Assembly: GCA_045544635.1 (NCBI GenBank)
Contig: JAZPZJ010000093.1
Coordinates: forward strand, 2,632-66,631
Length of the DNA: 64,000 nucleotides
Direction of reading: 5' to 3'
Source: Oscillospiraceae bacterium
GTDB lineage: Bacteria > Bacillota > Clostridia > Oscillospirales > Ruminococcaceae
The translations under genes were made by a program, and so were the position numbers. Positions 6,388-58,240 of the stretch are shown here, piece by piece (position 1 is the first letter of the stretch; the number at the start of each line of letters is the position of its first letter). The notes under the pieces were generated by a model, which was not told the DNA's origin, ran no database searches, and saw only the letters and a list, made by a program, of their open reading frames with translations.

Positions 6388-6455
6388 TATGATACTGGAG
6401 TATTATGCTGTAATATACTCACTAATCAAACACAAAAATCATTGGAGGTGGTCGA

Positions 6456-7652: not shown

Positions 7653-7680
7653 ACTTAACAAACGAGAGGTGGAAAAATAA

Positions 7681-9297: not shown

Positions 9298-9313
9298 AGG
9301 AGCGTGATGAAAG

Positions 9314-10102: not shown

Positions 10103-10152
10103 TGAATGAAGGAAGTGACATTTGACACAACTTCATCAGAAAGGTGGTTAGG

Positions 10153-12837: not shown

Positions 12838-12849
12838 GGAGGTGCTGTT

Positions 12850-13305: not shown

Positions 13306-13320
13306 GATGGGAGGTGCTGC

Positions 13321-14481: not shown

Positions 14482-14495
14482 AAGAATACAAAAAA

Positions 14496-14529
14496 CCGGC
14501 AGTCGGAAGGATTGCTTCCGACTGCCGGG
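14496..14529. terminator. bidirectional hairpin between convergent pilin gene and pilD
   Basis: CCGGCAGTCGGAAG-GATT-GCTTCCGACTGCCGG, preceded by AAAAA. Confidence 0.6.
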
Positions 14530-14541
14530 CTTGTATTGAGT

Positions 14542-15372: not shown

Positions 15373-15464
15373 GATGTATGCCCTCCTTAAAGTCGATTAT
15401 ACATATATTATATCATAATGATACATTTTTTACAAGTGCAAAATCAAAGTATGGAGGTTATTGT

Positions 15465-17135
15465 ATGAGAAACATTCGAATCGGTGATTATCTTGTTGAA
15501 CAGAAGTTAATCACGCCCGACCAGCTGGATAAGGTTCTGGCAGCACAGAAGGAAGCGCAGGACGGCAAGCGTTTCGGTGAACTGGTTGTGGAGATGGGTT
15601 TCATTTCTGAGATCCGTCTGGCACAGGCACTCGCCGGCAAGCTTCGTGTACCCTTTGTGGATCTCGCAAACATCGAGATCGACGAGGAAGCAGTTCGTAA
15701 GATTCCGGAGAATCTGGCGAAGAAGTACACCGTTATTGCGATCAATGTGCAGGGCCGCCGACTGACAGTTGCAACGGATGACCCGATCAACTTCAACATT
15801 CTGGAAGATATCAAGATGCAGACCGGTATGGATACTATCCCGGTACTGGCTACCAGAACTGCCATCAACAAGGCAATCGGCCACCTGTACTCTATGGAGA
15901 ACGTAGACAGCGTACTCGAGAGCGTAACGCAGTATGGTTCTGTGGATACCGAGGATGAGGAATCCCGTGACCGTGTTGAAAGTGCGCCGATCGTAAAGCT
16001 GGCAACTACCATCATCGAGAACTCCTACAGAGCAGAGGCAACCGATATTCATATCGAGCCCTTTAAGACCTACACCCGTATCCGTATCCGTGTTAACGGT
16101 GACCTTGTAGAGCTCATGAACGTTTCCAACGTGGTACATAATGCACTGACCACCCGTCTCAAGCTCATTTCCGGTATGAACATCGCCGAGAAGCGTATCC
16201 CGCAGGACGGCCGTTTCACACAGGTTGTTGACGGCACCACACTTGACGTCCGTGTATCCTCACTGCCGACGGTTAACGGTGAGAAGATCGTAATCCGTAT
16301 TCTGTCCACCGGTCAGATTGCTCTGCGTAAGATCACTGACCTGGGTATGTCCGATTATAACTACCAGCTGTTTGAATCCATGATCAAGTGCCCGCACGGC
16401 GTTATCCTGGTAACAGGGCCTACCGGTTCCGGTAAGACAACCACTCTGTACGCTGCGCTCGGTGAGCTGGCAAAGCCCCATGTAAACGTTATTACTGTTG
16501 AAGACCCGGTCGAGAAGGCGATCGACGGTATCAATCAGGTACAGGTAAACTCCAAGGCAGGTATGACTTTTGCGGCTGCTCTGCGTTCCATCCTCCGTCA
16601 GGACCCGGATATCGTTATGATCGGTGAGATGCGTGACTCTGAGACTGCGGATATCGGTATCCGTGCCGCTATCACAGGTCACTTGGTACTCTCCACGCTG
16701 CATACCAACGATGCAGCTTCCACCATTGTCCGTCTCGTTGACATGGGCGTTGCTCCCTACATGGTAGCAACCTCTCTGATCGGCGTTATTGCACAGCGAC
16801 TGGTTAAGGTACTGTGCCCGAAGTGCAAGAAGCAGCGTATGTCCACTGATGAAGAAAACGGTCTGATGAAGATCCCGGCATCCGTACCGGTATGCGAAGC
16901 AGGCGGCTGCAGTGAGTGCAACAACACCGGCTACAGAGGCAGAACTGCGATTCATGAAATCATCCACTGCACATCCGGTATTTCTACCATTGTTGCTAGA
17001 AACGGCAGCAAGGAAGAGATCGAGGAACAGGCGAAGAAGAACGGCACAAAGCTCCTGCGTGACAACGTATCGGAACTGGTACAGAAGGGCGTTACTTCCA
17101 TGGATGAGCTGGTTCGTGTAACCTACGCTGTATAA
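15465..17135 (+). CDS. pilB: type IV pilus extension ATPase (GspE/PilB family)
   Basis: ATG 15465 after GGAGG. MRNIRIGDYLVEQKLITPDQLDKVL (T2SSE_N), Walker A GPTGSGKTTT, and C-terminal CPKC...CSEC zinc motif. Confidence 0.93.
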   Translation: MRNIRIGDYLVEQKLITPDQLDKVLAAQKEAQDGKRFGELVVEMGFISEIRLAQALAGKLRVPFVDLANIEIDEEAVRKIPENLAKKYTVIAINVQGRRLTVATDDPINFNILEDIKMQTGMDTIPVLATRTAINKAIGHLYSMENVDSVLESVTQYGSVDTEDEESRDRVESAPIVKLATTIIENSYRAEATDIHIEPFKTYTRIRIRVNGDLVELMNVSNVVHNALTTRLKLISGMNIAEKRIPQDGRFTQVVDGTTLDVRVSSLPTVNGEKIVIRILSTGQIALRKITDLGMSDYNYQLFESMIKCPHGVILVTGPTGSGKTTTLYAALGELAKPHVNVITVEDPVEKAIDGINQVQVNSKAGMTFAAALRSILRQDPDIVMIGEMRDSETADIGIRAAITGHLVLSTLHTNDAASTIVRLVDMGVAPYMVATSLIGVIAQRLVKVLCPKCKKQRMSTDEENGLMKIPASVPVCEAGGCSECNNTGYRGRTAIHEIIHCTSGISTIVARNGSKEEIEEQAKKNGTKLLRDNVSELVQKGVTSMDELVRVTYAV

Positions 17136-36781: not shown

Positions 36782-39412
36782 TCAGAAGCCTCTCTTTGCA
36801 AGATCCTTCTTGAATTTCGCATTGATCTTTTCTTCACGCTTCTGACGCTTGAGTTCTTCCTTGGTCAGAGGACGAGCAGGCTCAGCAGGCTTTTCTTCGG
36901 CAGCCTGCTTCGGAGCGGCTTCCTTCTTTGCTTTCGGCTTGTACTCACGGTACTGCAGCTCAACCTTCGGCTCTTCCTTCTTCTTGTACTTGGAAGTATC
37001 CTCGCCCATCATGGAGAGAATATCTTCTACGCTGTCAACGATTGCAACGTTGCCATCCTGCTGGTCGAAGATATTACCCTGCGGCGCAGCGGACTTGGAA
37101 ACAGCGGAACGGATGTAATCAGGCATATCGGGGTTGGTTTCGATCTTGGAAACACGAACGCCTTGGGACTTTCTCTTCTTGCCGTAGGTCATCGGCTCGA
37201 CAGTCGGATGCTCGGTATCCTCGGGCAGAGCGTAGGTTCCCATGGTAGGTACCTCTGCGGTCATCGGAGAAATGAGCGGTGCTTTCTTCTTCGGTGCAGG
37301 CGGTGCTTCCTGTACGGGGGCAGCTTCCTGAACCGGAGCCGGTGCGGGCTGCGGAGCAACAGGTGCAGGCTGCGGTGCTACGGGTGCAGGCTGGGGTGCT
37401 AAGGGTGCAGGCGGCGGTGCTACGGGTGCAGGCTGGGGCATTACCGGTGCCTGCTGCATGGGCGGAACCTGCTGCGCATAGGGCTGCGGAGCAACCTGCG
37501 CATATACGGGCTGACCATTTGCGTCATAACCCATGAACTGCGGCATTACCTGCTGCATGAAGCCATAAACGGGCTGACCGTTTGCATCGTATCCCATAAA
37601 CTGCGGAACCTGCTGTACGTTCTGCGGCATGCCCTGCATCGGAGCTTGTGCATACTGCGGCTGCATGGTGGGCATGGGTGCAGCAGGAATCGGCTGGGGT
37701 GCAGGTGTTTCCGGAACGGGCGCAGTGAACGCCGGAACCTCGGGAACTGTAACCTCTTCGATTGCCTCGGGCAGTTCCTCAACAGCCGGAGCAGTGAACG
37801 CCGGAACCTCGGGAACCGTAACCTCTTCGATCGCCTCGGGCAGTTCCTCAACAGCCGGAGCAGTGTATGCCGGAACTTCGGGAATCAGTTCCTCCAGATC
37901 GGGAACGGTGATGTTTTCGGGTTCGATTACAGGGATCTCCGGTTCTGCAGTCAGATCCGGAACTGTAATATTTTCGGGAGCGATCACAGGGATTTCCGGT
38001 TCTGCAGCCGCTGCAAGTTCTTCCAGATCCGGAACAGTGATCTGCTCGGGCGTAATTACGGGGATTTCAGGCTCGGAAACCGGAATGACTTCTACGTCCT
38101 CGATCTCTTCAGCAGGTGCTGCTGCCATATTCATCACAGCTGCAAACGGATCATCATCCTCTACAACCTCGGCAACAACTGCAGATGCAGGAGTTTCCTC
38201 CACGGAAGAATCGCCGAACATGCGGTTTGCGATCTCATCGAATTCCATGAATGCGTGGCTCTCGGCATTGCCTGCCAGCATTTCTTCTTCAAATTCAGCA
38301 GTGGTCTCAACGATATCAAATTCGGGGCTTTTTGTCTCCGGTGCTGCTGCGGGTTCTGCTACAGCGTCCGGAATGCTGAACTGTGCCATGATATCGTCCG
38401 TTTCCTCGGGGACGGGAGCTGCTTCCGGTGCAGTCTGCGGCATTGCAAACTGTGCCATGATATCGTCCATATCCTCCAGTACAGGTGCTGCAGGTGTATC
38501 CTCAGCAACGGGTGCAGGTGCTTCTTCAGCAGCCTCTTCCTCAGCTGCAGGAGCGGAGATACCAAACTGTGCCATGATGTCATCGAGTGTCTCAACAGCA
38601 GGTGCTTCCTCGACGGGTGCCGGAGCAGGTGCAGCCTGCGGCATTGCGAACTGTGCCATGATATCATCCGGATCATCGAGTACCGGTGCAGACACAGGTT
38701 CCTGCGGCATTTCTGCCTTTGCGGCTTCCTGCTGCTGTGCAAGGATGTTCGGGTTCTTGCCCTCATTTGCAGCAAAGGCAGCGGCAGTCGGATCCACTGC
38801 GGTCTTGGGCAGTGCGAACTGCGCCAGATCTCCGTCGAGTGCAAAGCCGCCGAAGGATGTCTGCGTCGGGGGCGGTGCAGCTGCGGGAGCAGCGGGCTTC
38901 TTCACCGGGGGTACATACTGTTCAAATTCAGGAACGGGTGCATCGTCCACACCATGGATCTCAGCCAGGGGCGGCGTTGCAGCAGCCTCTTCGGCTTCTC
39001 TTGCAGCCTTTGCCTCTTCTTCGGCTCTGGCAGCCTCCTCAGCGGCACGGCGTTCAGCGATCGCAGCGTTGCGTTTGTCACGCAATTCCTGCTTCTGACG
39101 CTCCTGCTGTACCTCGGCGAGGGATACCATATTCGGATCTTCACCCATAGTCTTCGTACGCTTTTTCTCTTCTTTCAGCATACGATTCATTTCTTTACGG
39201 TCTGCTTTCAGAATTCTCTTGGTAAACACGGTCTGGCACTTTTCGCAAGTTACCTCTGTCATCAGGCCGAATGCATCATCGACGGTTCCGCCGACGCTGT
39301 ATTTTGCCGCACTGTCAGGTCGTTGAAGATTGATGCCGCAGCCGGTTCTTTTATTGTTATCCGTTGCATGCACCGCGTTGCCCTTGGATTCGCGGATCAG
39401 AAAAAACTGCAT
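36782..39412 (-). CDS. 876-aa repeat-rich, Ala/Pro/Glu/Val-rich predicted disordered protein, function unknown
   Basis: ATG 39412 after GGAGG (MQFFLIRESKG...). No TM or signal peptide seen. N-terminal ~70 aa with Cys at GCG and CEKC. Charged coiled segment, at least five families of in-frame tandem repeats, and a Lys-rich C-terminus. Confidence 0.7.
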   Translation of the reverse strand: MQFFLIRESKGNAVHATDNNKRTGCGINLQRPDSAAKYSVGGTVDDAFGLMTEVTCEKCQTVFTKRILKADRKEMNRMLKEEKKRTKTMGEDPNMVSLAEVQQERQKQELRDKRNAAIAERRAAEEAARAEEEAKAAREAEEAAATPPLAEIHGVDDAPVPEFEQYVPPVKKPAAPAAAPPPTQTSFGGFALDGDLAQFALPKTAVDPTAAAFAANEGKNPNILAQQQEAAKAEMPQEPVSAPVLDDPDDIMAQFAMPQAAPAPAPVEEAPAVETLDDIMAQFGISAPAAEEEAAEEAPAPVAEDTPAAPVLEDMDDIMAQFAMPQTAPEAAPVPEETDDIMAQFSIPDAVAEPAAAPETKSPEFDIVETTAEFEEEMLAGNAESHAFMEFDEIANRMFGDSSVEETPASAVVAEVVEDDDPFAAVMNMAAAPAEEIEDVEVIPVSEPEIPVITPEQITVPDLEELAAAAEPEIPVIAPENITVPDLTAEPEIPVIEPENITVPDLEELIPEVPAYTAPAVEELPEAIEEVTVPEVPAFTAPAVEELPEAIEEVTVPEVPAFTAPVPETPAPQPIPAAPMPTMQPQYAQAPMQGMPQNVQQVPQFMGYDANGQPVYGFMQQVMPQFMGYDANGQPVYAQVAPQPYAQQVPPMQQAPVMPQPAPVAPPPAPLAPQPAPVAPQPAPVAPQPAPAPVQEAAPVQEAPPAPKKKAPLISPMTAEVPTMGTYALPEDTEHPTVEPMTYGKKRKSQGVRVSKIETNPDMPDYIRSAVSKSAAPQGNIFDQQDGNVAIVDSVEDILSMMGEDTSKYKKKEEPKVELQYREYKPKAKKEAAPKQAAEEKPAEPARPLTKEELKRQKREEKINAKFKKDLAKRGF
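37320..38700 (-). repeat. in-frame coding tandem repeats (several families)
   Basis: A 69-bp unit occurs 2.3 times at 37722-37882 (PEVPAFTAPAVEELPEAIEEVTV). EPEIPVIxPExITVPDL occurs 4 times (about 37885-38090). DDIMAQFxxP occurs 4 times plus 1 degenerate copy (about 38385-38700). APQPAPVA 24-bp units lie at about 37330-37440. PQFMGYDANGQPVY occurs twice (about 37500-37610). Confidence 0.85.
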
Positions 39413-39682
39413 AGCAATCCTCCTATTCAAATATACTCTATTCTTATCATAACACATTTCTAACATAAAATCAACTCTTTTTTTAAAAAAAATTTGATAT
39501 TTTACCGAAAGTATTACAAAAGGTTGAAATCGGGTAAAATTTTATGCGTTCCATTACGCTCTGAACAATTTGCAATTTCCGACAAAATGTGCTACAATAA
39601 AACAGAATGGATGCAGCGGCGGGAATATACCGGATGTGATCCGTAAGCCTGCCCATTATAATATGTATCGGAGGGATCTGAC

Positions 39683-40375: not shown

Positions 40376-42811
40376 ATGAAAATGACCATGACCGAGCGTA
40401 TCCGCCGTGCGGCAAACTGCGGCATTGCGGTGCTGATGGCAACTGCGTTCACAGCGCAGATGTCGGCGGTTCTTATACCTGCCAAAATCGCAAAGCCGGT
40501 ACAGCTGGAAACATCCGCAGCGGAAAGCTATGACTACGCAAAGCTTCTGCAGTATTCCATGTATTTCTACGATGCGAATATGTGCGGTACGGGGGTTGAT
40601 GAGAACACCCGCTATGTCTGGAGAGGGGACTGCCATACCTATGATGCGCAGGTGCCCATGCAGCCGATTGATGAAAAAAACGTCGGTACAAATCTCTCAC
40701 AGGCATTTCTGGATCAGCATAAGGATGTACTGGACCCGGATGGTGATGGCTATATCGACGTCGCAGGCGGTATGCATGATGCCGGTGACCATGTGAAATT
40801 CGGTATGCCGGAGAACTACTCCGCTGCAGCGCTTGGCTGGGGCTACTATGAGTTCCGTGATTCCTATGTAAAAACCGGACAGGACGAACATATTGAAACG
40901 ATCCTGCGGTATTTCAATGACTATCTGATGAAGTGTACCTTCCGTGACGACAGCGGTACTGTGATCGCACACTGCTATCAGGTCGGTGACGGCGATATCG
41001 ACCACCAGTACTGGAATTCCCCCGAAGTGGATGAGATGGCAAGACCGGCATTCTTCCTGACTGCCGACAAGCCTCAGACGGACTATGTTGTATCTGCGGC
41101 AGGTTCTCTGGCGATCAACTATATGAACTTCAAGGATACCGATCCGGAGTATGCGGAAAAGTCCCTTGACTATGCATTGGCACTCTGGGATTTTGCCAAT
41201 GACAATCCCAAGGAACTGAGTGACAATGCGGATGGTCCGAAGCAGTACTACAAGTCCAACAAGTGGGAGGACGACTACTGCTGGACTGCAGCATGGCTGT
41301 TCCTCTGCACAGAAGATAAGTCCTATCTGGAACAGGCGGCGCCTTATGTGGACTATTATGCTCCCTCCGGCTGGTGCTACTGTTGGAACGATATGTGGAG
41401 CGGTGCGAATTCCCTGTGGGGTATCATCAACCAGACCTATCCGGAGCTTGGACTTGTGGATATGGTAAGAGCTGCACAGGGCAAGAACCAGTATGTTTTT
41501 GATAACTTCTGGGATGAAGTAGAAAAGTGCTTTCCCACATGGCAGGCACTGGAATCCCCCGGCGGCTACGCATTCCTGAGTACGTGGGGCAGTGCAAGAT
41601 ATAACACCGCAATGCAGCTGATCGCCTATGTCTATGATAAGTACAACAACAACGGAAAGCCCGGTGAATACAGTGACTGGGCAAAGAGTCAGATGGATTA
41701 TCTCCTCGGTGATAATCCCCTTGACCGCTGCTATGTGGTCGGCTACAGCGATAATTCTGCAAAATTCCCGCATCATCGTGCGGCATCGGGTCTGACTAAG
41801 TGCGAAGATCCGGACGAACATCGCTATGTCCTCTACGGCGCACTGGTCGGCGGTCCGGACGGGTCCGACCAGCACAGCGACACCACCGCTGACTGGGTTT
41901 ACAACGAAGTTACCATCGACTACAATGCGGCATTCGTTGGCGCAGCAGCCGGCATCTATGCATTCTACGGCACAGAGGACATGGAAGTGACGCCTGATTT
42001 CCCGCCGGAGCCGGAATATGGCGGCGATGAGAACGGCGGCACAAGCTATTGGGTGGAGGCATGCGGCATCGATGATCCGAAGGACGCTGGTGCAGGCGTG
42101 ACCAAGGTCTCCCTGATGGTCAAGACCACTGCGACCACAAAGCTTGACAACATCTCCATCCGTTACTATTTTGACGGTTCCGAGATGTCCAATCCCATGG
42201 GACTGACCTGCGGCGAACTGTATGACCAGGCGGCAACTGAGGCAGCACCGGCTGACGGTGTGGTCAGCGGCCCGTACAAGTACGACAAGATGGACAATGT
42301 TTATTACTTTGAAGTGACCTATGACGGTTACAATTTCGCAAACTCCGCAAAGAAGTACCAGTTCTGGATGGGTACCTATTATGGCGACAAATGGACGCCG
42401 GACAATGACTGGAGCTATCAGGGGCTGACGATGTTTGACAACGACTCTGCCTTCTCCGGCACTGGCAATGAAGTGCGCACCGATTACATCTGTGTTTACA
42501 CAGATGACACCCTGATCGGCGGTATTGAGCCGGATGGCTCCCAGCCTGCAACGGATCCGACCACGGAACCCACCACGGAACCCACTACGGAACCGTCGGA
42601 TACTGAGAACATCTATGGTGATGCGAACTGCGATGGTGAGGTAGATGTTCTGGACATTATCGTCCTGAACAAGAATCTGCTTGGCGGCGGTTCCCTTTCC
42701 GAGCAGGGAAAAATCAATGCGGACGTTGACGGCAGCGGCGAGGCAGACCCCAATGACTCCCTGAACATTATGAAGTTTATCGTCAAGCTGATTGATACAC
42801 TGCCTGTATAA
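40376..42811 (+). CDS. cellulosomal GH9 endoglucanase with CBM3-like module and C-terminal dockerin
   Basis: YDYAKLLQYSMYFYDANMCG, GGMHDAGDHVKFGMP and FPHHRAASG (GH9). A CBM3c-like segment, a TEPTTEPTTEP linker, and dockerin GDANCDGEVDVLDIIVL...ADVDGSGEADPNDSLNIMKF. Confidence 0.9.
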   Translation: MKMTMTERIRRAANCGIAVLMATAFTAQMSAVLIPAKIAKPVQLETSAAESYDYAKLLQYSMYFYDANMCGTGVDENTRYVWRGDCHTYDAQVPMQPIDEKNVGTNLSQAFLDQHKDVLDPDGDGYIDVAGGMHDAGDHVKFGMPENYSAAALGWGYYEFRDSYVKTGQDEHIETILRYFNDYLMKCTFRDDSGTVIAHCYQVGDGDIDHQYWNSPEVDEMARPAFFLTADKPQTDYVVSAAGSLAINYMNFKDTDPEYAEKSLDYALALWDFANDNPKELSDNADGPKQYYKSNKWEDDYCWTAAWLFLCTEDKSYLEQAAPYVDYYAPSGWCYCWNDMWSGANSLWGIINQTYPELGLVDMVRAAQGKNQYVFDNFWDEVEKCFPTWQALESPGGYAFLSTWGSARYNTAMQLIAYVYDKYNNNGKPGEYSDWAKSQMDYLLGDNPLDRCYVVGYSDNSAKFPHHRAASGLTKCEDPDEHRYVLYGALVGGPDGSDQHSDTTADWVYNEVTIDYNAAFVGAAAGIYAFYGTEDMEVTPDFPPEPEYGGDENGGTSYWVEACGIDDPKDAGAGVTKVSLMVKTTATTKLDNISIRYYFDGSEMSNPMGLTCGELYDQAATEAAPADGVVSGPYKYDKMDNVYYFEVTYDGYNFANSAKKYQFWMGTYYGDKWTPDNDWSYQGLTMFDNDSAFSGTGNEVRTDYICVYTDDTLIGGIEPDGSQPATDPTTEPTTEPTTEPSDTENIYGDANCDGEVDVLDIIVLNKNLLGGGSLSEQGKINADVDGSGEADPNDSLNIMKFIVKLIDTLPV

Positions 42812-43370: not shown

Positions 43371-43682
43371 TTACTCCTCGTCCTCGCATGCTTCCTCAAG
43401 CATCTCGGAGATGCGGTCGATGAAGATGTTGCCGATGCGGTCGTATTCCTCGTCATTGTCAATTGTGGTCAGGAAGTCCACGCCATCCTCGTCTGCGCCA
43501 GCCTTCAGGATCACAAGCTCAGTGTCCTCTTCCAGTGCAGCCTCGGGATCCTCGGAATAAGGAACGAGGGCGTAGTATGTATTGCCGTCAACTTCCATGA
43601 CATCCATCAATTCGAATTCATGCTCGTTGCCCTCTTCGTCTGTTAAGGTAAAGATCTCGGGATTGAAATTCATTTCTTCCAT
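43371..43682 (-). CDS. DUF1292-family small acidic protein
   Basis: 103 aa: FTLTDEEGNEHEFELMDVMEVDGNTYYALVP... is the typical DUF1292 pattern. Confidence 0.8.
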   Translation of the reverse strand: MEEMNFNPEIFTLTDEEGNEHEFELMDVMEVDGNTYYALVPYSEDPEAALEEDTELVILKAGADEDGVDFLTTIDNDEEYDRIGNIFIDRISEMLEEACEDEE

Positions 43683-43857
43683 ATTTGACTCCTATCTGCC
43701 TCGAGGGCTGTGTTTTTTGCTGTGTTTATATTATACTATATTTTCACCAAAAAATCAAGAGGGAAATTCAGTTTTTTTAGATATTTTTTGGAGATGTATC
43801 CGGAATGGCGAAACTGCGCAGTTTAAAGAGAAAAATGCAGAATCTTTTTGTTTTTTG

Positions 43858-43886
43858 TTGCCACGGCGGTTTTTTTGTGCTATAAT
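43858..43886 (+). promoter_or_regulatory. sigma-A promoter TTGCCA-17-TATAAT for the giant helicase gene
   Basis: Hexamers at 43858-43863 and 43881-43886, spacer counted as 17 nt. Confidence 0.5.
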
Positions 43887-43931
43887 GAGGAAAAGCGTAT
43901 CCCTATATATTGTATGAAAGAAGTGAAGATC

Positions 43932-46900
43932 ATGGAACCGAAGATCCAAGCCGAAGTGCAGCTGACCCCCAGCATCAGTTTTGCCATGCAGCAGAATTAC
44001 GTTCCCGTTATCCGCAGCCTGCGTCTGACGAATTTAACCGATCTGCCGCTGTCGCAGCTCACGGTGAAGCTGACTGCCGAACCGGAATTCGCCCATCCTT
44101 TTGAAGCAAAATTGGAACAGCTCCTGCCGGACATGCCGCTGGAGATTGCGCCTGTGAAAATTGCAGTTTCCCCCGAATATCTCTACAGCCTGACGGAGAA
44201 AGTGGCAGCGCTCCTGCATCTGGAAGTGCTGTGCGGTGCGGAATGCGTCTGCCGGGAGGAGTATGCCGTGGAACTGCTGGCTGCCGACCAGTGGCAGGGG
44301 ATCCTGCGGCTGCCGGAAATGACGGCAGCATTTGTGACGCCGAATCATCCGAAGGTGACCGAGCTTGTCGGAAAGGCGGCACAGTATCTGCAGAAATGGA
44401 CGGGGGATCCGTCCTTTACGGGGTATCAGAGCCGCAACCCCAATATCGTAAAGAAACAGGCGGCGGCGATTTATGCTGCGCTGCAGGCGGAGAATATTGC
44501 GTATACCATGCCGCCCGCAAGCTACGAGACAGCGGGACAGCGCATCCGTCTTCCCCATGCGGTGCTGGAACAGAAATGCGGTACCTGTCTGGATCTCGCT
44601 GTGCTTTATGCGGCATGTCTGGAGGCGGTGCATCTGCGTCCGCTGATTGTTTTCATCAAAGGACATGCGTTTGCCGGCTGCTGGCTGGAGGAGGAGACCT
44701 TCCCCGAGTGTGTTGAGGATGATGTGACCGCTCTCACAAAGCGCATTGCTGCCGGCATCGACAGCCTGTGCCTTGTGGAATGTACGGATGTGACCGCCGG
44801 CAAGACCTGTGATTTTGACCGCACAGAGCAGCATGCAGCTGCACATCTGGAGGATCCGTCACAATTTGATCTGGCACTCGATATTCTGCGCTGCCGCTGC
44901 AGCGGCATCCGTCCCATGCCGACCCGGGTTGCGTCGGATGGTATCTTCGAAGCGGCTGATTTCGGAGAACGCAGCAGCCGGGAGATCACCGCAGCCCCCA
45001 GAGAACTGGATCTGCAGCTCCATGGCGCCGAAGCGGAGGCACAGGTAATTACCCGTCAGGGGATCTGGGAGCGCAAGCTTCTGGATCTGAGCCTGCGCAA
45101 CAGTCTGCTGAATTTCCGCCCCAGTTCCTCGAATGTCCAGTTCATGACGGCGGATATGGCAAAAATCGAGGACGATATGGCAAAGGGCACCGATTTCGGG
45201 ATCCTGCCGGTTCCGCAGGATATTACACTTACGCTTGGCAGCAGCAAGATGTATGAGATTGAGAATGACAGGGATCTGATCACGACCATTGCCGAGGCAG
45301 AATTCCGCAACAAGCGTCTGCGTACGTTTCTCAGTGCCGCAGAGCTGGAAAAGAGCCTGAAAAAGCTGCATCGTCAGGCAAAGGTGAGTCTGGAGGAAAA
45401 CGGTGCCAATACACTCTACCTTGCGCTTGGCTTCCTCAGATGGTATGAGACCGATCAGAGTGAACGTCCCCGTTATGCGCCGTTGGTGCTGGTGCCGGTG
45501 GATCTGATCCGCAAGGTGCAGAATCGTTCCTACACGCTGCGTATCCGTGGCGAGGAAACGCAGATGAATATCACCCTGCTTGAGATGCTGCGCCAGTTTT
45601 TCGGCATCCGCATCAGCGGTCTGCAGCCGCTGCCGATGGATGAGAGCGGCATTGATCTGCCCCTTGTTTACAATACCGTTCGCAAAGCGGTCATGTCCCG
45701 CAAGGGCTGGGATATTGTAGAATATGCTTTCCTTGGACAATTTTCGTTCAGCCAGTTCATCATGTGGAACGATATCCGCAACCGCAGTGAGGAGCTGCAG
45801 CGCAACAAGGTGGTCTCCTCTCTGATCGAAGGAAAACTGACCTGGACACCGCAGCAGATCGAAGCGACCGCAGCGGAGCTTGACAGCAGGATCGCTCCTG
45901 CGGATATGGCAGTCCCCACGAGTGCCGATTCCTCTCAGCTTGCGGCGATCTATGCCGCTTCCAAGGGAGAGAGCTTCGTGCTGCACGGCCCGCCCGGAAC
46001 GGGTAAATCCCAGACCATTACCAATATGATCGCCAATGCGCTCTATCAGGGGAAATCCGTGCTCTTTGTGGCTGAGAAAATGGCGGCACTTTCCGTGGTG
46101 CAGAAACGTCTGGCAGCCATCGGACTTGATCCGTTCTGTCTGGAGCTGCATTCGAACAAATCACAGAAAAAAGCAGTCCTCGGACAGCTTGCCCGCACGC
46201 TTGAAGTGGGACATATCAAATCCCCCGAGGAGTATGAGAAAACAGCGGAATCCCTCAAGGTACAGCGTGAAGCACTCAATGCCGTCATGGAACAGCTGCA
46301 CGGCATGCAGCCGATCGGCATGTCCATGTATGATGCGATCGTCCGCTATGACACCAATCTGAAATACAAGGGAACCATCGGCTTTGATGCGGATTTTGCT
46401 GCAGCATGCACCCCCGATGCCTATGCCGCATATCTGGATGCCGCTGCGAAAACGGCAACTGCGGGTAAGGAATGCGGCGGTTATCTGGCGTCATCGCTGC
46501 GGGATTACTGCCGCACGGATTATTCCATGGAGATCCGTGATGCATTTGAGCAGCATGCGCACCATTTGAAGAAACTTGCGGAAACGGAACGTGCACAATG
46601 GCAGACACTTTGCAGTCAGCTGCACCTTTCGCCTGAAATGCGCTATGAAGACTATGCTGCATTGACGGAGCTGCTGTATTCTGTGCGGCACGGTGATTAT
46701 CTCGGCGGCATGTTCTGCGAAGGTGCAAGACAGAAGGATGCACAGCTTTCGCAGCTGCTCCGAGATGGCACACAGTATGCCGGACTGCATGAAAAGCTTT
46801 CGTCCGAATATGAAAATTCGGTGTTCAGCGTGGACGCAGCCGCTGCAAAGCTTGACTGGAAACGCAATGAACAGAAGTGGTTCCTCCCGAAATTCTTCGG

Positions 46901-49727
46901 CAGAAAGCGCCTTCTCAAGGAATTGGCACTGCATGCCAAAACGCCTGCTGCAGTCACGGCAGAAAACTATCTTTCCATTTGTGATACACTTGAGCGGTAT
47001 GCATTGCGCAAGCAGACCATCAGCACTGCGGATGGGGCATTGACGGATGTATTCGGCAGCAGCTGGAACGGTGTGGATACCGATTTTGCAGCACTTTCCG
47101 GGTGCTATGGAAATTCTGTGCGGCTCTGCGATCTGGCACAGAAACTGCCGCAGTCGGCAGAGATCTGTAAAGCACTCCGTTCTATGGCGGATGATTCTGC
47201 ACTGCGAGAGGAAATTGCCCAGCGCTGCGCAGGCGCTTCGGAACTGACTGCCCTGCTGCAGCAGCTGCAAACAGAATATGCTGTGGATACGGCACGGCTG
47301 CTCGGAGATGCGGACTGGTTTGCGCTGCTTTGTGAGACAGCGGAGGGCTGGTGCCGTGATATTGCACTACTGCGTGAACGTACCGTTCTGCAGAATGCGA
47401 TGGATACGCTCAAGGAGCTTGGGCTTTCGAAGCTTCTGGATGCTTACAGGAACGGCACGCTGTATGAGGAGGATCTGGTGCCTGCACTGGAATGTGAGAC
47501 ATGTCGTGCGGTGATCGCTGATGTCTTCCGCAGGCATCCGTCCCTGACTTCGTTCCAGGAAGCGCAGTTCGAAGCACAGGTGGACAAATATCGTGAGACA
47601 ACGGAACAGTTTGCACGCCTGACAATTCAGGAGCTTGTGGCAAGACTTTCTGCGAAGGTACCCGTAGTCGGTACGGGCGGTGCGGCTTCTTCAGAGATCG
47701 CCATTCTGCAGAGAGCCATCCGCAGCGGCGGCAGAATGCTGCCGATCCGCAAACTCTTTGACAGCATCCCCAATCTGCTGCGCCGCATGTGTCCGTGCAT
47801 GCTTATGAGTCCGATCTCCGTGGCGCAGTACATTGATCCGGCATTTCCGAAATTTGATCTTGTCATCTTCGACGAGGCGTCCCAGCTTCCGACCAGTGAA
47901 GCAGTCGGTGCCATCGCAAGGGGCGAGAATGTGATCGTTGTGGGTGATCCCCGTCAGCTTCCGCCGACCAGCTTCTTTACTTCCAATCAGGTCGATGAGG
48001 AAAATTATGAGAAGGAAGATCTGGAGAGTGTGCTGGATGATTGCCTGGCACTGTCCATGCCGCAGAAACATCTGCTCTGGCATTACCGCTCCCGTCATGA
48101 GAGCCTGATCGCCTTCAGCAACGCCCGGTTCTATGAGAATAAGCTCCTGACCTTCCCGTCCCCTGCGGATCAGGTATCCGAGGTGAAGTGGGTGCATGTG
48201 GACGGCTATTACGATAAGGGCAAGACCAAACAGAATCCTGCAGAGGCAAATGCCGTAGTTGCAGAGATCGTTCGCCGTCTGAGGGATGAGAAGCTCCGTC
48301 AAGAGAGCATCGGCGTGGTGACATTCAGCGTGGTGCAGCAGAATCTGATCGATGATCTGCTCGCGGAGGAATACATCAGGGATCCGGAGCTGGAGGAGAT
48401 CGCCAATGCCATGTACGAGCCGATATTTGTCAAGAACCTCGAAAATGTACAGGGCGATGAGCGTGATGTGATCCTGTTCAGCGTGGGTTATGGCCCCGAC
48501 AAGAACGGTAAGGTTTCCATGAATTTCGGACCGCTCAACCGTGACGGCGGCTGGCGCAGACTGAATGTTGCCGTGTCCCGTGCACGCAAGGGCATGATGG
48601 TATTTTCCGTCATCCGTCCCGAACAGATCGACCTGTCACGCACCCGTTCCGACGGTGTGGCACAGCTGCGTGCGTTCCTGGAATTTGCCGCAAGGGGAAA
48701 ATCCGCATTGGCGGTCAATGCGGCAAACGGTACGGTGCAGTCCGATGTCTTTGCCGAAGCACTGGCGCAGGAGCTGCACAAATGCGGGTTCGATGTCAAA
48801 TGCGGCATCGGCTGCTCCGGCTACAAAATTGACGCTGCGATCGTCAATCCCGACGCACCGCAGGAATACCTGCTCGGTCTGCTCTGCGACAGCGGCAGCA
48901 TGAAGGATACGACAACAGCGAGGGACAGAAACATCCTGCAGCCTTCCGTGCTGCGTGGACTTGGCTGGAATCTTTACCATGTGCATATTCTGGAATGGCT
49001 TGACAACAAGGAACGTCTGATCGGGCATATTAAGGATGCAGCAGAGCAGGCGCTTGCGGATTACCGCAGGGCGCCCGAGGAGCGCAAGCCTGCAGAGTCC
49101 GTGCAGAAGCCTCAGGATTACAGCAGTTTTTCCTTCGAGAAAGAGGAAGTACCTTCCGTGACAGAATGCTGTGAGCCCTATGTACCCTGCCATTTGCCGC
49201 AGATGGGCGAACCGGAGGAATTCCAGGCGGAAGCCGCAATGCCGATGATCGTCAGCTGCATCAAGAAGATCGTACTGCGGGAGGCCCCTGTGAGCCGTCA
49301 TCTTGTGCTGAAGAAGGTCATTGCGGTGTGGGGTATCACCCGAAGCGGCAGCCGTACCGAGCGCATTTTTGATGAAGCGGTCGCTAAGGCTGGTGTGAAG
49401 ATCACCGAATCGAACGGTGCGCAGTTCTTCTGGCGTGATGATCAGGAACCGGCGGCATATGAAAGCTGCCGTATTCCGGCTGCGGACGGTGAAAAACGCA
49501 GTATGGAGGAGATCTGTGCCGAAGAGATTGCAGCGGGCGTCATGTGCGTTCTGCGCAGCCAGATCAGTGCGGCGAGAGCCGATCTGATCCGTGAGACTGC
49601 AAAACTGTTCGGTTATACCCGAAGCGGCGGCGTGATCGAGCAGGCAGTGAACGCAGGCATTGCGTGTGCAGCGCAGCGTAGTCTGCTGACCGTGGAAGCG
49701 GACGACAGGATCGTGCTGAAATCGTAA
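43932..49727 (+). CDS. giant multidomain protein: transglutaminase-like N-domain + DUF4011-like + SF1 (Upf1/DNA2-like) helicase + degenerate PD-(D/E)xK nuclease-like module + DUF3320-like tail
   Basis: Continuous ORF of 1,931 aa from ATG 43932. GTCLDLAVLYAAC / KGHAF / ECTD; WERKLLDLSLRNSLLNF and NTLYLALGFLRWYE. Walker A GPPGTGKSQT (45987-46016), Walker B VIFDEASQ (47862-47885), VVGDPRQLPPT, GDERDVILFS, LNVAVSRARKG. GYKIDAAIV...GLLCDSGS...ARDRNILQPSVLRGLGWNLYHVHILEW. Confidence 0.85.
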   Translation: MEPKIQAEVQLTPSISFAMQQNYVPVIRSLRLTNLTDLPLSQLTVKLTAEPEFAHPFEAKLEQLLPDMPLEIAPVKIAVSPEYLYSLTEKVAALLHLEVLCGAECVCREEYAVELLAADQWQGILRLPEMTAAFVTPNHPKVTELVGKAAQYLQKWTGDPSFTGYQSRNPNIVKKQAAAIYAALQAENIAYTMPPASYETAGQRIRLPHAVLEQKCGTCLDLAVLYAACLEAVHLRPLIVFIKGHAFAGCWLEEETFPECVEDDVTALTKRIAAGIDSLCLVECTDVTAGKTCDFDRTEQHAAAHLEDPSQFDLALDILRCRCSGIRPMPTRVASDGIFEAADFGERSSREITAAPRELDLQLHGAEAEAQVITRQGIWERKLLDLSLRNSLLNFRPSSSNVQFMTADMAKIEDDMAKGTDFGILPVPQDITLTLGSSKMYEIENDRDLITTIAEAEFRNKRLRTFLSAAELEKSLKKLHRQAKVSLEENGANTLYLALGFLRWYETDQSERPRYAPLVLVPVDLIRKVQNRSYTLRIRGEETQMNITLLEMLRQFFGIRISGLQPLPMDESGIDLPLVYNTVRKAVMSRKGWDIVEYAFLGQFSFSQFIMWNDIRNRSEELQRNKVVSSLIEGKLTWTPQQIEATAAELDSRIAPADMAVPTSADSSQLAAIYAASKGESFVLHGPPGTGKSQTITNMIANALYQGKSVLFVAEKMAALSVVQKRLAAIGLDPFCLELHSNKSQKKAVLGQLARTLEVGHIKSPEEYEKTAESLKVQREALNAVMEQLHGMQPIGMSMYDAIVRYDTNLKYKGTIGFDADFAAACTPDAYAAYLDAAAKTATAGKECGGYLASSLRDYCRTDYSMEIRDAFEQHAHHLKKLAETERAQWQTLCSQLHLSPEMRYEDYAALTELLYSVRHGDYLGGMFCEGARQKDAQLSQLLRDGTQYAGLHEKLSSEYENSVFSVDAAAAKLDWKRNEQKWFLPKFFGRKRLLKELALHAKTPAAVTAENYLSICDTLERYALRKQTISTADGALTDVFGSSWNGVDTDFAALSGCYGNSVRLCDLAQKLPQSAEICKALRSMADDSALREEIAQRCAGASELTALLQQLQTEYAVDTARLLGDADWFALLCETAEGWCRDIALLRERTVLQNAMDTLKELGLSKLLDAYRNGTLYEEDLVPALECETCRAVIADVFRRHPSLTSFQEAQFEAQVDKYRETTEQFARLTIQELVARLSAKVPVVGTGGAASSEIAILQRAIRSGGRMLPIRKLFDSIPNLLRRMCPCMLMSPISVAQYIDPAFPKFDLVIFDEASQLPTSEAVGAIARGENVIVVGDPRQLPPTSFFTSNQVDEENYEKEDLESVLDDCLALSMPQKHLLWHYRSRHESLIAFSNARFYENKLLTFPSPADQVSEVKWVHVDGYYDKGKTKQNPAEANAVVAEIVRRLRDEKLRQESIGVVTFSVVQQNLIDDLLAEEYIRDPELEEIANAMYEPIFVKNLENVQGDERDVILFSVGYGPDKNGKVSMNFGPLNRDGGWRRLNVAVSRARKGMMVFSVIRPEQIDLSRTRSDGVAQLRAFLEFAARGKSALAVNAANGTVQSDVFAEALAQELHKCGFDVKCGIGCSGYKIDAAIVNPDAPQEYLLGLLCDSGSMKDTTTARDRNILQPSVLRGLGWNLYHVHILEWLDNKERLIGHIKDAAEQALADYRRAPEERKPAESVQKPQDYSSFSFEKEEVPSVTECCEPYVPCHLPQMGEPEEFQAEAAMPMIVSCIKKIVLREAPVSRHLVLKKVIAVWGITRSGSRTERIFDEAVAKAGVKITESNGAQFFWRDDQEPAAYESCRIPAADGEKRSMEEICAEEIAAGVMCVLRSQISAARADLIRETAKLFGYTRSGGVIEQAVNAGIACAAQRSLLTVEADDRIVLKS

Positions 49728-49730
49728 AAA

Positions 49731-49760
49731 AGCAGCCCCCATAAAAATATGGGGGCTGCT
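49731..49760. terminator. bidirectional terminator between the helicase gene and the SBP gene
   Basis: AGCAGCCCCC-(10 nt)-GGGGGCTGCT, flanked by A-run and T-run. Confidence 0.7.
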
Positions 49761-49765
49761 TTCTG

Positions 49766-54866: not shown

Positions 54867-55613
54867 ATGCCGAGAAAAGAAACGACGATTTCCGAAAAGG
54901 AAAATATGATTATCGGACGTAATCCTGTTCGTGAGGCACTGCTGAGCGGACAGGCGATTGATACAGTATATGTCAGCGGCGGCGCAGGCTTGCATGAAAT
55001 CCGCACGCTTGCACAGGAAAAGGGCGCTGTGGTGAAAACTGTCAGTGACCAGAAGCTTTCTCAGATGACCGAGGGTGTGCATCAGGGCGTGATTGCGTTC
55101 GGTGCATGTGCTGCCTATGTGACAGTGGAAGATCTGCTGGAGGTATCTGCAAAGAAGGGAACAGCACCGTTCATCATCATCTGCGATGAGATCGAGGATC
55201 CCCATAATCTGGGGGCCATCATCCGGACGGCGGAAACTGCCGGTGCGGACGGGATCATTATCCCGAAGCGCCGCAGTGCCATGCTGACCCCCACCGTACA
55301 TAAGACCTCCGCCGGTGCGGCAAGCTGGCTGCCCGTTGCGAGAGTCTCAAACCTTGCAGCTGCCATTGAAAAGCTCAAGAAAGCGGGTGTCTGGATCTAT
55401 GGTACGGATATGGACGGTACGCTCTATACGCAGACAAGCTTTGATGGTGCCGTGGCATTGGTCATCGGTTCAGAGGGATTCGGCATGAGCCGCCTGATCC
55501 GTGAAAAGTGCGATTTCCTTGTCAAGCTTCCGATGCTGGGAAAGATCACATCCCTGAATGCGTCGGTTGCAGCAGGAATTTTCATGTATGAAGTGGTACG
55601 GCAGAGAGGATAG
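54867..55613 (+). CDS. rlmB: 23S rRNA (guanosine-2'-O)-methyltransferase, TrmH/SpoU family
   Basis: 248 aa: IIGRNPVREAL (SpoU_sub_bind), DEIEDPHNLGAIIRTAE, LNASVAAGI. Confidence 0.88.
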   Translation: MPRKETTISEKENMIIGRNPVREALLSGQAIDTVYVSGGAGLHEIRTLAQEKGAVVKTVSDQKLSQMTEGVHQGVIAFGACAAYVTVEDLLEVSAKKGTAPFIIICDEIEDPHNLGAIIRTAETAGADGIIIPKRRSAMLTPTVHKTSAGAASWLPVARVSNLAAAIEKLKKAGVWIYGTDMDGTLYTQTSFDGAVALVIGSEGFGMSRLIREKCDFLVKLPMLGKITSLNASVAAGIFMYEVVRQRG

Positions 55614-55627
55614 GAGTACATAGAACA

Positions 55628-58147
55628 ATGGGAAAGCAAAACATGACGCTGGAGGAGATCCTCAAGGAATACTCCCCCGATGCTGCCGGAACACAGAAAG
55701 ATGCGGCGGCGTCCAATGGAAAAACTGCACCGACCCTGACTGCCGAGGCACAGGAAACGGTGTCCGAACTGATGGAACAGCAGCAGTATAAAGACGCCTT
55801 TGCACAGGCGGAGGCACAGCGGAAGGCACAGCCGCATTATGCGAGCCGCCGTCCCCCGATGGAGCTGAACCGTACCAAGGTCTCCTTCATCCAGTCTGCA
55901 GCAATGGAATCGGATTCGATGCCCATGCGTGTGAACCTGCCCACGGGCAATGCCCGCACCATGCAGGAGCAGAAAGCAGCAGAGCCGGTGGTGAATGATA
56001 CCCCCAAGATCCGCCGCATGAGCGATTCCACCCGTGCAAGGGAAATCGAAAAACGCAAAAAGCGCAAGAACCGGGCACGTTCCGAGGAAGAATTCTATAC
56101 TTATGAAAAGGAACGTCCGGACGGCGAGTATCTCTACACCCAGATCCACGGTGCCAAGCGTGCACGCAACCGCAAAAAGGTGACGGAGCGTGATATCACC
56201 GCAGTGGGTACTGAGACACTCCATCTGAATACGATCGACATTGTTTCCGTGGCACAGAAGCCACGTCCCGAACCGGTACAGCCGGCGGATATCCCGCCCG
56301 CACCGAGAGCAGAAAAAACCAGCATCAACCTTGGTGCCGGCAGTCTGCAGAATGCGGCGGATCTGGATATCAGCATCAGCGTAACGCCCGAAGAGGCGGA
56401 AGCGGAGGCTAGACGCATCGAGCTGCTCAATCACAAAATGGAGATGGAGGATGTCTCCGATATCCGCAGTGATATCGACGAGCTGCGCAATGCCATTTCC
56501 TTCCGTGTGATGGCGCTGACACTGGTGCTGCTCATCAGCGGTTATCTTTCCGTGGGTGAAATGTTCTCCGTGACTTGGATTGAAAATCTTTCTGCAGGCA
56601 TGTTTGCCACGCTGCAGACCTTGCTCGGCTTTGCGGCAGGCGTGGTCTGCTTTCCCGTGCTGAAAAACGGACTCAGACGTCTGCTGACGCTCCGTGCAGA
56701 TACGGACAGCCTTGCGGCGGTGTCTCTGCTTGGCTGCGAAGCGGCTTCCGTTGCCGCTTTGTTCAACCCCGAGGTGATCGCTGGGGGTGCAGTGCAGCTT
56801 TACATGCCCTGTGCGGTATTGGTGCTGCTGCTCCATTCCATCGGCAAGCTCCTGATCGTCAGCCGTGAGGAGACCAACCTGCGTCTGGCAGCAAAGAAAT
56901 TCGATTGCTACGGTCTGACCGTGGTGGAGCATGAACAGCGTGCCGAAGCAATGACCCGTGGTGTGCTGGGGGATTTCCCGATTCTTGCCACCATGCGCCA
57001 TACCGATTCCCTCGCGGATTTCCGCAAGTATACCTATTCCGCCGATCTGGCAGACCGCTTCTGCCGTCCTGTGGCACCGCTGAGCCTGCTGCTTGCAGTG
57101 CTTGCGGCGGTCGTGATGACCCTGCTCAAGGCGGAGAGCGCTGCCTATGGACTGATGCTGTTCTCCATGCTGTCCTCCGCATGCGGCTGCGCAGCCATCA
57201 CCTTTGTGGTGAATCTGCCGCTGTATAAGGCGACTAAGCGCATGTCGAAGAACGGTGCGCTCATGCTGGGTTATCAGAGTGTGGACGATTTCTATGATGT
57301 CAATTCCATCATGCTGGATGCGTCTGCGATGTTCCCCGATGGTTCTGTGAAGCTTTCGGGTGTGAAGGTGTTCTCCGACATTAAGGTGGATGAGACGCTG
57401 CTGGCAGCTGCAAGTCTTTCCAGACATGCAGGAAGCGTGTTCAGCAGCATTTTCAAGGAAGTGCTCGCAGGTAAGGAGCAGAAGCTCTATCCTGTGGAGA
57501 ACTATGTCTATGAGGATTCCATGGGTCTGTGCGGCTGGATCAACAACCAGCGTGTGCTGCTGGGCAACCGTGAGCTGATGGTCAGTCACAATATCGAGGG
57601 TATGCCCTCCAGAGGCAAAGAAGCAGAGCTGCTCGGCAGCGGCAAGGAAGCGGTGTATCTCTCCGTTTCGGGTAATCTGTCCGCCATGTTTCTCGTTGAA
57701 CTGACAGCGGATAAGCAGGTCAAGTACTGGGCACAGCAGACCATCCGCAACAATATCTGCATCCTGCTGCACAGCGTGGATGCGATGATCACATTGCACG
57801 GTATTTCCGAATTGTTCGATATTCCGCAGGAAATGGTAAAAATCATTCCGTCCAAGATGGATCAGGAATATTATGAGGAAACGGCTTCGCAGGAGAATAT
57901 GAGCGCTTCGATGGCATGCACCGGCACCTTCTGCAGCATGGCGCAGCTGATCATCGGCACCAAGCTCATTCGCCGTGTCGCAACCTTTGGTATTATTATT
58001 CAGGCGGTATTCCTCCTGCTCGGCATTGGTCTGATCCTGCTCGAGGAGCTGCTCCATGTCGGTATGACGCCGGTATGGCTGATGGCTCTGCAGACAGCCG
58101 CAGCATTGCTGACGCTTCTTTCCGTGAATATCCGACGTATTTGCTAA
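55628..58147 (+). CDS. P1B-type ATPase homologue with degenerate catalytic motifs and a long basic N-terminal extension
   Basis: 839 aa, colinear by eye with CopA-type pumps (RADTDSLAAVSLLG; SACGCAAITF in the CPC position; VLLGNRELMVSHNIEG). DKTGT is replaced by DASAM (D codon 57317-57319). No TGES is seen. TGDN becomes HSVDA. GDGxND is absent. Confidence 0.65.
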   Translation: MGKQNMTLEEILKEYSPDAAGTQKDAAASNGKTAPTLTAEAQETVSELMEQQQYKDAFAQAEAQRKAQPHYASRRPPMELNRTKVSFIQSAAMESDSMPMRVNLPTGNARTMQEQKAAEPVVNDTPKIRRMSDSTRAREIEKRKKRKNRARSEEEFYTYEKERPDGEYLYTQIHGAKRARNRKKVTERDITAVGTETLHLNTIDIVSVAQKPRPEPVQPADIPPAPRAEKTSINLGAGSLQNAADLDISISVTPEEAEAEARRIELLNHKMEMEDVSDIRSDIDELRNAISFRVMALTLVLLISGYLSVGEMFSVTWIENLSAGMFATLQTLLGFAAGVVCFPVLKNGLRRLLTLRADTDSLAAVSLLGCEAASVAALFNPEVIAGGAVQLYMPCAVLVLLLHSIGKLLIVSREETNLRLAAKKFDCYGLTVVEHEQRAEAMTRGVLGDFPILATMRHTDSLADFRKYTYSADLADRFCRPVAPLSLLLAVLAAVVMTLLKAESAAYGLMLFSMLSSACGCAAITFVVNLPLYKATKRMSKNGALMLGYQSVDDFYDVNSIMLDASAMFPDGSVKLSGVKVFSDIKVDETLLAAASLSRHAGSVFSSIFKEVLAGKEQKLYPVENYVYEDSMGLCGWINNQRVLLGNRELMVSHNIEGMPSRGKEAELLGSGKEAVYLSVSGNLSAMFLVELTADKQVKYWAQQTIRNNICILLHSVDAMITLHGISELFDIPQEMVKIIPSKMDQEYYEETASQENMSASMACTGTFCSMAQLIIGTKLIRRVATFGIIIQAVFLLLGIGLILLEELLHVGMTPVWLMALQTAAALLTLLSVNIRRIC

Positions 58148-58240
58148 GACAGCACCGCACAAAGACCGCCTGACGAACAATCTGACTACGCAATACACGC
58201 ACCTTCTCTATGCGTGATTGCCTTTAGAAAGAGGTAATCC

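Follow-up and report, generated by a model that had tools for sequence, protein, structure and literature searches.

A ProA-family protein combining a transglutaminase-like module, a DUF4011 helicase and a partly eroded Vsr-like nuclease domain in an Oscillospiraceae bacterium

The stretch of Oscillospiraceae bacterium DNA analysed here (64,000 nt; assembly GCA_045544635.1, contig JAZPZJ010000093.1, positions 2,632-66,631, forward strand), hereafter the window, contains a single giant gene whose predicted product joins a transglutaminase-like module, a DUF4011 helicase, a Vsr-like nuclease domain and a DUF3320 tail. By its profile scores, this protein is a member of the ProA family, related to the defence protein Hhe but not itself Hhe. 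The explanation that we favour, and hold to be probable though far from assured, is that the gene is a ProA orthologue encoding a single-polypeptide, modification-independent protein of nucleic-acid surveillance or defence. In this best explanation the gene is constitutively placed, carries its own putative promoter and terminator, and is vertically inherited in a rumen Oscillospiraceae lineage.

The family assignment was carried by profile comparison. Against the NCBIfam equivalog model NF058533, "anti-phage protein ProA" (release 20), the protein scored 2138.6 bits with a cut-off of 1500, and residues 16-1897 aligned to positions 1-1903 of the 1903-position profile. Five segments of the protein each matched the ProA model separately and in order. 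Since residues 16-380 matched profile positions 1-364, the N-terminal module belongs to the definition of the family. The best PADLOC model, at the level of hidden Markov models, was PDC-S37, a single-gene "phage defence candidate" (1246.1 bits; residues 379-1919 on profile positions 13-1538 of 1550). An earlier interpretation made from the letters of the DNA (the sequence-only reading) had proposed a candidate defence gene, in agreement with both of these curated libraries.

The sequence-only reading had also likened the architecture to that of Hhe, which Gao and colleagues are said to have described in 2020 as a single-gene DUF4011 helicase with a Vsr nuclease. The kinship stood, as Hhe models matched the DUF4011, helicase and restriction endonuclease (REase) regions strongly (NCBIfam NF042953, 756.7 bits; PADLOC PDLC02194, 567.7 bits). 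Membership did not, and was rejected on the NCBIfam score, which falls below the cut-off of 2000; the Hhe model matched neither residues 1-380 nor the DUF3320-bearing tail. Because Walker A lies near position 350 and Walker B near position 1288 of the Hhe profile, the insertion within the helicase is longer in Hhe than in the window protein.

All five parts that had been proposed for the protein were found in the proposed order (Table 1), and the DUF4011, Vsr-like and DUF3320 assignments were each upheld by Pfam. The helicase core is of the Upf1-like superfamily 1 (SF1) type. AAA_11 matched above its gathering score in two pieces, the better one at residues 666-763, and AAA_11 and AAA_12 scored 68.1 and 67.9 bits, respectively (cut-off 27). 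The protein has each of motifs I, II, III, V and VI, as GPPGTGKS, DEASQ, GDPRQLPP, QGDERD and RRLNVAVSRAR. The Walker A and Walker B motifs are invariant (Walker A in 93/93 family representatives, drawn from 50%-identity clusters), and the nearest solved helicase cores by sequence in the PDB are those of IGHMBP2, Sen1 and Upf1.

As had been noticed from the sequence, Walker A and Walker B are about 620 aa apart. Most of this distance is taken up by an insertion that had no match in Pfam. The structure prediction that the sequence-only reading had called for gave a confident, wholly helical model of about 28 helices (AlphaFold2; predicted local distance difference test score [pLDDT] 82.5), and a fold search of the PDB with this model returned nothing significant (best E = 0.22). 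The insertion is the least conserved region of the protein yet is under purifying selection, with a ratio of nonsynonymous to synonymous substitution rates (dN/dS) of 0.14-0.15. Upf1-like helicases carry their 1B and 1C accessory domains at the topologically same place in RecA1. The insertion had been noted as very large; it proved to be family-wide, and longer still in Hhe. At the C terminus, DUF3320 was matched with E = 3.9e-8, and a PDB sequence search with the last 345 aa returned a spurious fucose isomerase match alone. The DUF3320 region has been assigned as a winged helix-turn-helix (wHTH) (PMC3710099).

The N-terminal module was modelled with AlphaFold2 on 26 homologues (mean pLDDT 82; predicted template modelling score 0.78). 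The model consists of a beta-sandwich, an alpha/beta core at about residues 125-330 and a disordered linker, an arrangement that supports the transglutaminase-like fold suggested by the sequence-only reading. In a Foldseek search of the PDB the top match was 3kd4, a putative protease from Parabacteroides, and further matches were transglutaminase 2 (TG2), factor XIII (FXIII) and protein 4.2. The beta-sandwich aligned over about 118 columns to FXIII, TG2 and protein 4.2, transglutaminases that themselves contain a beta-sandwich, with a Foldseek probability of 1.00. E-values for the module as a whole were modest (from 2.6e-4), and the long alignments had a high root-mean-square deviation, which in this model fits two domains lying in a different relative orientation. 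A profile of the module found no match among PDB sequences.

Residue conservation was examined at the proposed active site. The Cys and His codons that had been pointed out beforehand, at 44586-44588 (C219) and 44664-44666 (H245), proved to be those of conserved residues, each kept in 92/93 representatives. The Asp that had been placed beside them, D286, did not hold up, as this position is variable (A 31, L 14, C 11 and others among the 93); the third residue is E283 (codon 44778-44780). Position 283 was acidic in 93/93 representatives (E 82, D 11), and in a larger sample (n=176) it was E or D in every relative but two, which have Asn. In the model, helix 219-232 begins with C219 and strand 245-251 with H245, and E283 comes after strand 279-282. 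We accept the N-terminal module as transglutaminase/papain-like with a predicted C219-H245-E283 triad, because structure prediction and residue conservation agree on it, conservation being the stronger evidence.

The nuclease domain matched the Vsr-like MTES_1575 profile (PF18741) with 69.5 bits against a cut-off of 38.2 (E = 2.7e-19). Among the 93 representatives, conservation was 92% at D1634, 94% at D1653, 92% at G1654, 82% at Y1657, 97% at D1665, 98% at R1666, 74% at R1683 and 91% at W1685. In an alignment made by eye, we take D1634 to correspond to D51 of Escherichia coli Vsr, D1653 to H64 and D1665 to its ERD motif. The window protein keeps D1634, D1653 and D1665-R1666. Defence by Hhe is abolished by the Vsr-domain mutation E1731A (10.1101/2022.06.16.496414). 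The Glu position of the corresponding "ExDG" motif is Leu in about half and Glu in about a fifth of the ProA family; if Hhe E1731 is this Glu, ProA would differ from Hhe there.

A survey of 83 species-level orthologues, translated and grouped by synteny, revealed a graded loss of the nuclease motif. In the 47 loci of other Clostridia, D1653 was present in 40/47, G1654 in 39, R1683 in 31 and W1685 in 35. In the window clade, whose seven loci are linked to a DUF1292 gene, position 1653 was D in 4 and S in 3, and S1654, H1683 and H1685 were found in 7/7. In a class of 27 loci linked to murT, the Asp at 1653 was lost in 27/27 (G 23, C 2, E 1, L 1), G1654 remained in only 5, and neither R1683 nor W1685 occurred in any. 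The transglutaminase-like triad and the Walker A and B motifs were essentially invariant in all of these classes. Judged from these alignments, the window lineage clearly tolerates loss of the nuclease motif.

Selection was estimated by the Nei-Gojobori method. The overall dN/dS was 0.086 against a 90% identical orthologue and 0.135 against a 76% identical one, for which dS is near saturation. Values were 0.01-0.22 in every domain, including 0.065-0.15 in the REase domain and 0.03-0.05 in the Walker B/RecA2 region. Because purifying selection acts on all domains, the gene is, as far as codon substitutions tell, functional and not a relic.

The architecture has been described before. A 2013 computational survey of the HEPN superfamily reported "giant proteins" such as MTES_1575, in which HEPN is joined with a transglutaminase-like peptidase, an SF-I helicase, a Vsr REase and a wHTH overlapping DUF3320 (PMC3710099). 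The same survey predicted modification-independent action, with invading DNA recognised through the wHTH, and suggested that the transglutaminase domain may provide a further line of defence through protein cleavage (PMC3710099). The sequence-only reading had known of no functional description of the N-terminal addition or of the large insertion; the former lies within both the ProA model and the 2013 survey, and both features are, on comparison of the sequences, family traits. The architecture, the defence prediction and the curated family model all already exist.

When the N-terminal module was used for an exhaustive HMMER search, 4,709 cluster representatives were returned, 1,071 of them at E <= 1e-30. 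Most relatives are about 1,900-2,300 residues long with the module at the N terminus, and some are longer by an N-terminal extension of about 200 aa. Two extended variants were scanned: P0259 has a DUF4145 domain (HEPN family) at residues 21-111, and P0191 gave no HEPN-type match. P0191 carries a C-terminal I-HmuI NUMOD-like domain, and in another relative, P0269, the transglutaminase-like module is preceded by SAP and SseB-N domains.

Relatives of the protein occur on mobile elements. Matches to 490 plasmid records were found by tblastn, 28 of them near full length. One relative is carried by a Klebsiella IncF conjugative plasmid, flanked by insertion sequences and near an AbiJ-NTD4 gene; others lie on Acinetobacter, Pseudomonas and rhizobial plasmids. 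These plasmid-borne relatives, including that of Klebsiella, and a Bacteroides relative pass the ProA cut-off. A near full-length relative (43% identity, 92% coverage) was also found on an unannotated 11.4-kb "Bacteriophage sp." contig from human faeces (MT836269.1), which represents either bacterial sequence that was mis-binned or a copy carried by a phage. A phage origin of the gene was considered on the strength of this single phage-labelled contig and was rejected. The record labelled Bacteroides finegoldii "plasmid 29" (NZ_OY725931.1; 45.8 kb) carries rpsA, glutamine synthetase III and trxB and is probably a chromosomal fragment despite its label. The ProA homologue on this record (41.5% identity) converges on a gene annotated as "reverse transcriptase family protein", and only 2 nt lie between the ends of the two.

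To place the window gene among its nearer relatives, species-representative genomes were scanned, giving 80 loci, mostly from Ruminococcus, Oscillospiraceae and Lachnospiraceae metagenome-assembled genomes of rumen or gut. In the 90% identical relative, the ProA neighbours are identical to those of the window. In the 76% identical relatives (L002, L013 and L059; relatives' coordinates 10001-15787), the block of DUF1292 (minus strand) and ProA (plus strand) is inverted as a unit, and its flanks, a GH9-CBM3-dockerin cellulase and SBP_bac_5, are unchanged. DUF1292 is linked to ProA in the seven window-clade loci and absent from the other 74. It was dismissed as a functional partner, being linked in 7/81 loci, all within the window clade. 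Neighbours were varied in the remaining 47 loci; clustering revealed no conserved partner gene among them and clade-specific synteny alone, and the idea of any conserved partner was dropped on this result.

In the Ruminococcus flavefaciens group, murT and gatD come next after ProA, on the same strand, in 27 loci, which correspond to 25 distinct species after removal of two duplicate retrievals. At the three ProA-murT junctions inspected, the genes are about 15 nt apart, with a GGAG-type ribosome-binding site and no hairpin. The arrangement looks like an operon joining a giant defence-type gene to cell-wall genes. Histidine biosynthesis genes lie upstream of ProA in 2/3 of the murT-linked loci inspected. 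In this group (L003, 13740-13830; L004, L005 and 24 further loci), the start codon of murT is TTG; murT-gatD serves lipid II amidation. Lineage-specific erosion of the nuclease motif, and coupling to murT-gatD in related species, are real patterns in the data.

Table 1. The ProA-family gene, the parts of its product and adjoining features, in window coordinates
Feature	Position	Strand	Details
DUF1292 gene	43371..43682	-	divergent, upstream of the ProA gene; Pfam
Putative sigma-70-type promoter	43858..43886	+	TTGCCA-17-TATAAT with TG extension; 11/12 consensus matches
ProA-family gene	43932..49727	+	1,931 codons; ATG 43932, TAA stop 49725-49727
N-terminal beta-sandwich domain	43932..44297	+	residues ~1-122; all beta; AlphaFold2, pLDDT 84-95
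Transglutaminase/papain-like core	44298..44921	+	residues ~123-330; AlphaFold2 and Foldseek
DUF4011 domain	45075..45590	+	residues 382-553; Pfam PF13195, E = 2.6e-50, full profile length
SF1 helicase RecA1, N-terminal part	45927..46226	+	Walker A GPPGTGKS at residues 686-693
All-alpha insertion inside RecA1	46227..47801	+	residues 766-1290, ~525 aa
Rest of RecA1, and RecA2	47802..48611	+	Walker B DEASQ at residues 1314-1318; AAA_12 at 1376-1558
Vsr-like restriction-endonuclease-fold domain, MTES_1575	48750..49031	+	residues 1607-1700
DUF3320 region, C-terminal tail	49218..49355	+	residues 1763-1808; Pfam PF11784, 33.6 bits against 25
Bidirectional intrinsic terminator hairpin	49729..49762	both	15-bp GC-rich stem, -27.5 kcal/mol

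The boundaries of the gene and its signals were largely as the sequence-only reading had given them. The uninterrupted open reading frame (ORF) of about 5.8 kb was confirmed; the open frame spans 43848..49727 on the plus strand, and the ATG chosen is the start position common to the homologues (consensus "ME..I..."). The promoter that had been proposed was recovered as a near-consensus match and would imply a 5' untranslated region of about 40 nt. Promoter-like sites as a class showed no excess over shuffled sequence in this region (4 found, 4.8 expected), and a real site upstream of the gene is plausible but not proven. The terminator was substantiated: its hairpin has a z of -7.25, with 0/200 shuffles as low in energy, and lies directly after the ProA stop, preceded by an A-run and trailed by a U-rich tract, between the convergent ProA and SBP_bac_5 (family-5 solute-binding protein) genes, both of which it serves. 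This SBP_bac_5 gene and the DUF1292 gene on the other side are both on the minus strand, so that no same-strand gene adjoins the window ProA, which stands alone as had been claimed.

Farther upstream, window positions 40376-42811 encode on the plus strand a glycoside hydrolase family 9 (GH9) cellulase that also bears CBM3 and a type I dockerin; by this gene the host is recognised as a cellulosome-forming bacterium of the rumen or gut, resembling Oscillospiraceae or Ruminococcus. The G+C content at 6001-16000 is 0.45-0.48, clearly below that of the rest of the window (0.50-0.58), and this segment may represent an island or a gene cluster of different composition. Pairs of long ORFs on opposite strands overlap at 55424-58198 (839 aa, plus; 924 aa, minus) and at 36782-39466 (894 aa, minus; 605 aa, plus). 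The 839-aa and 894-aa frames agree in strand and approximate length with genes called at the same place in the 90% identical relative. The 894-aa product had no Pfam match, the two genes of that relative have no Pfam match on record, and neither the 839-aa nor the 894-aa product matched a PADLOC model.

A mechanism can be proposed from the analogy to Hhe and the domain analysis of 2013. Foreign or aberrant DNA, for example replication or recombination intermediates arising from phage DNA-metabolism genes, would be what the C-terminal wHTH and the helicase load on. ATP-driven SF1 translocation, together with the large helical arm, would then license the Vsr-like nuclease to nick or cut, and the transglutaminase-like cysteine peptidase domain may serve either as a further effector or as a module for regulation, sensing or autoprocessing. 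Hhe is triggered by the activity of phage DNA-metabolism genes (10.1101/2024.10.10.617714), and the analogy suggests activation of this type rather than by a single protein trigger. Given the partial erosion of its nuclease motif, the window protein is most securely functional in its helicase and peptidase-like parts.

Several observations weigh against a surveillance or defence role of this kind. The Transglut_core check that had been advised gave 18.3-20.4 bits, below the gathering threshold of 23, and DUF553 likewise stayed below its cut-off (18-20 bits against 20.5); each of the two gave sub-threshold matches in 5/23 diverse members. At positions conserved in the family, the nuclease domain carries the substitutions G1654S, Y1657M, R1683H and W1685H, D1653 is gone from close relatives, and nuclease activity of the window protein is uncertain. 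A full-text literature search found no primary paper with an experiment on ProA, a name used there for proline biosynthesis genes and Legionella ProA, and recent defence-discovery papers that were checked made no mention of ProA, DUF4011 or Hhe; the "anti-phage" function rests on the name of the NCBIfam model plus analogy. None of the 10 genes nearest to the window ProA matched a PADLOC model. In a rough census, made without a matched control, of 89 neighbour proteins from 18 variable loci, the PADLOC families Cas1, Cas4, mad3, PDC-S04 and DEDDh were matched by 1-2 proteins each, beside transporters, acetyltransferases and metabolic enzymes, so that no clear defence enrichment was seen around ProA in this lineage. 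The orthologues here are syntenic among housekeeping genes. Core, syntenic orthologues away from defence islands had been named by the sequence-only reading as a sign of a housekeeping helicase, and this is in part what the lineage shows; elsewhere, however, the family travels on conjugative plasmids. Synteny without defence enrichment weakens the defence reading for this lineage but does not overturn it.

These same observations feed the alternative that has most to recommend it, although we regard it as unlikely: that ProA in this lineage is a domesticated or housekeeping helicase, no longer chiefly an anti-phage nuclease but a vertically inherited factor of nucleic-acid surveillance or genome maintenance that works through its helicase and transglutaminase-like modules and whose Vsr domain is reduced to DNA binding. 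The position of the locus is kept in the 90% and 76% identical relatives, there are no PADLOC matches among the window neighbours, and the core genes of Pseudomonas aeruginosa include one with DUF4011 (PMC10250203). In the 27 R. flavefaciens-group loci, where murT-gatD follows some 15 nt on without a terminator, D1653 is lost throughout and G1654, R1683 and W1685 are also altered; the window clade stands between this class and the rest at the same four positions, and the triad and Walker motifs are kept. On this reading, doubtful as we find it, ProA of rumen and gut Ruminococcus and Oscillospiraceae would have been domesticated, being vertically inherited and, in 27 species, coupled to murT-gatD, with the Vsr "DG" catalytic motif lost and the motor and triad retained. 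The window protein may be an intermediate stage of such a course, with the Asp retained and the surrounding motif lost. However, the window protein still has D1634, D1653 and D1665-R1666, its REase domain is under purifying selection, and its ProA-model score is as high as that of plasmid-borne relatives. The differing positions of the gene between clades point to past mobility, and a stable chromosomal site is compatible with defence.

The two remaining alternatives fare worse. That the gene is an Hhe system, as first proposed, we consider highly improbable: the match over DUF4011, helicase and REase is strong, but the ProA score is nearly three times higher than that for Hhe, the ends of the protein are unmatched and the insertion differs in length. 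Hardly any credence is given to a decaying relic, a once-mobile defence gene that is now non-functional. Conserved nuclease-domain residues are indeed eroded in the lineage, but the 5.8-kb ORF is free of interruption, its promoter and terminator are intact, dN/dS is at most 0.22 in any domain, and the residues of the helicase and the triad stay essentially unchanged in all 83 orthologues. A pseudogene was ruled out by these dN/dS values.

Taken at face value, the window gene is one more orthologue of an already named family and adds little. ProA-type proteins nevertheless unite motor, nuclease and papain-like module in a single chain, and those of this lineage form a natural series of nuclease sites, intact in other Clostridia, half-eroded in the window clade and lost in the murT-linked clade. 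With helicase and triad intact throughout, this series offers a comparison for which activity ProA needs, and it bears on whether immune helicases turn into housekeeping genes. Domestication, if true, would mean a switch of effector from DNase to peptidase or transglutaminase, or an immune helicase co-opted for a host function.

Among known systems, ProA as defined by NF058533 is the closest, alike from end to end and in domain order, including the N-terminal transglutaminase-like module. The window lineage departs from it at S1654, M1657, H1683 and H1685, and the window gene has a stable place among housekeeping genes, not on a plasmid or island. PDC-S37 is likewise a single gene, matched over most of the protein, but its profile begins at DUF4011 and omits the N-terminal 380 residues, and it is a candidate rather than a validated system. 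Hhe shares the one-gene combination of DUF4011, a Vsr-like nuclease and an SF1 helicase whose Walker A and Walker B are separated by a very large insertion; it differs in having no beta-sandwich/transglutaminase-like N terminus, in a model that leaves the DUF3320 tail unmatched, and in an insertion of about 940 profile positions, as against about 620 residues in the window protein. Upf1, IGHMBP2 and Sen1 have the closest helicase cores, with accessory domains inserted at a topologically similar place in RecA1, whereas the window insertion of about 525 aa is all helical and without structural match, and the flanking domains are wholly different. The fusion described in 2013 (PMC3710099) has the same core of transglutaminase, helicase, Vsr REase and wHTH/DUF3320, and differs by its N-terminal HEPN; by its domain content, the window protein is the HEPN-less form of that already described architecture.

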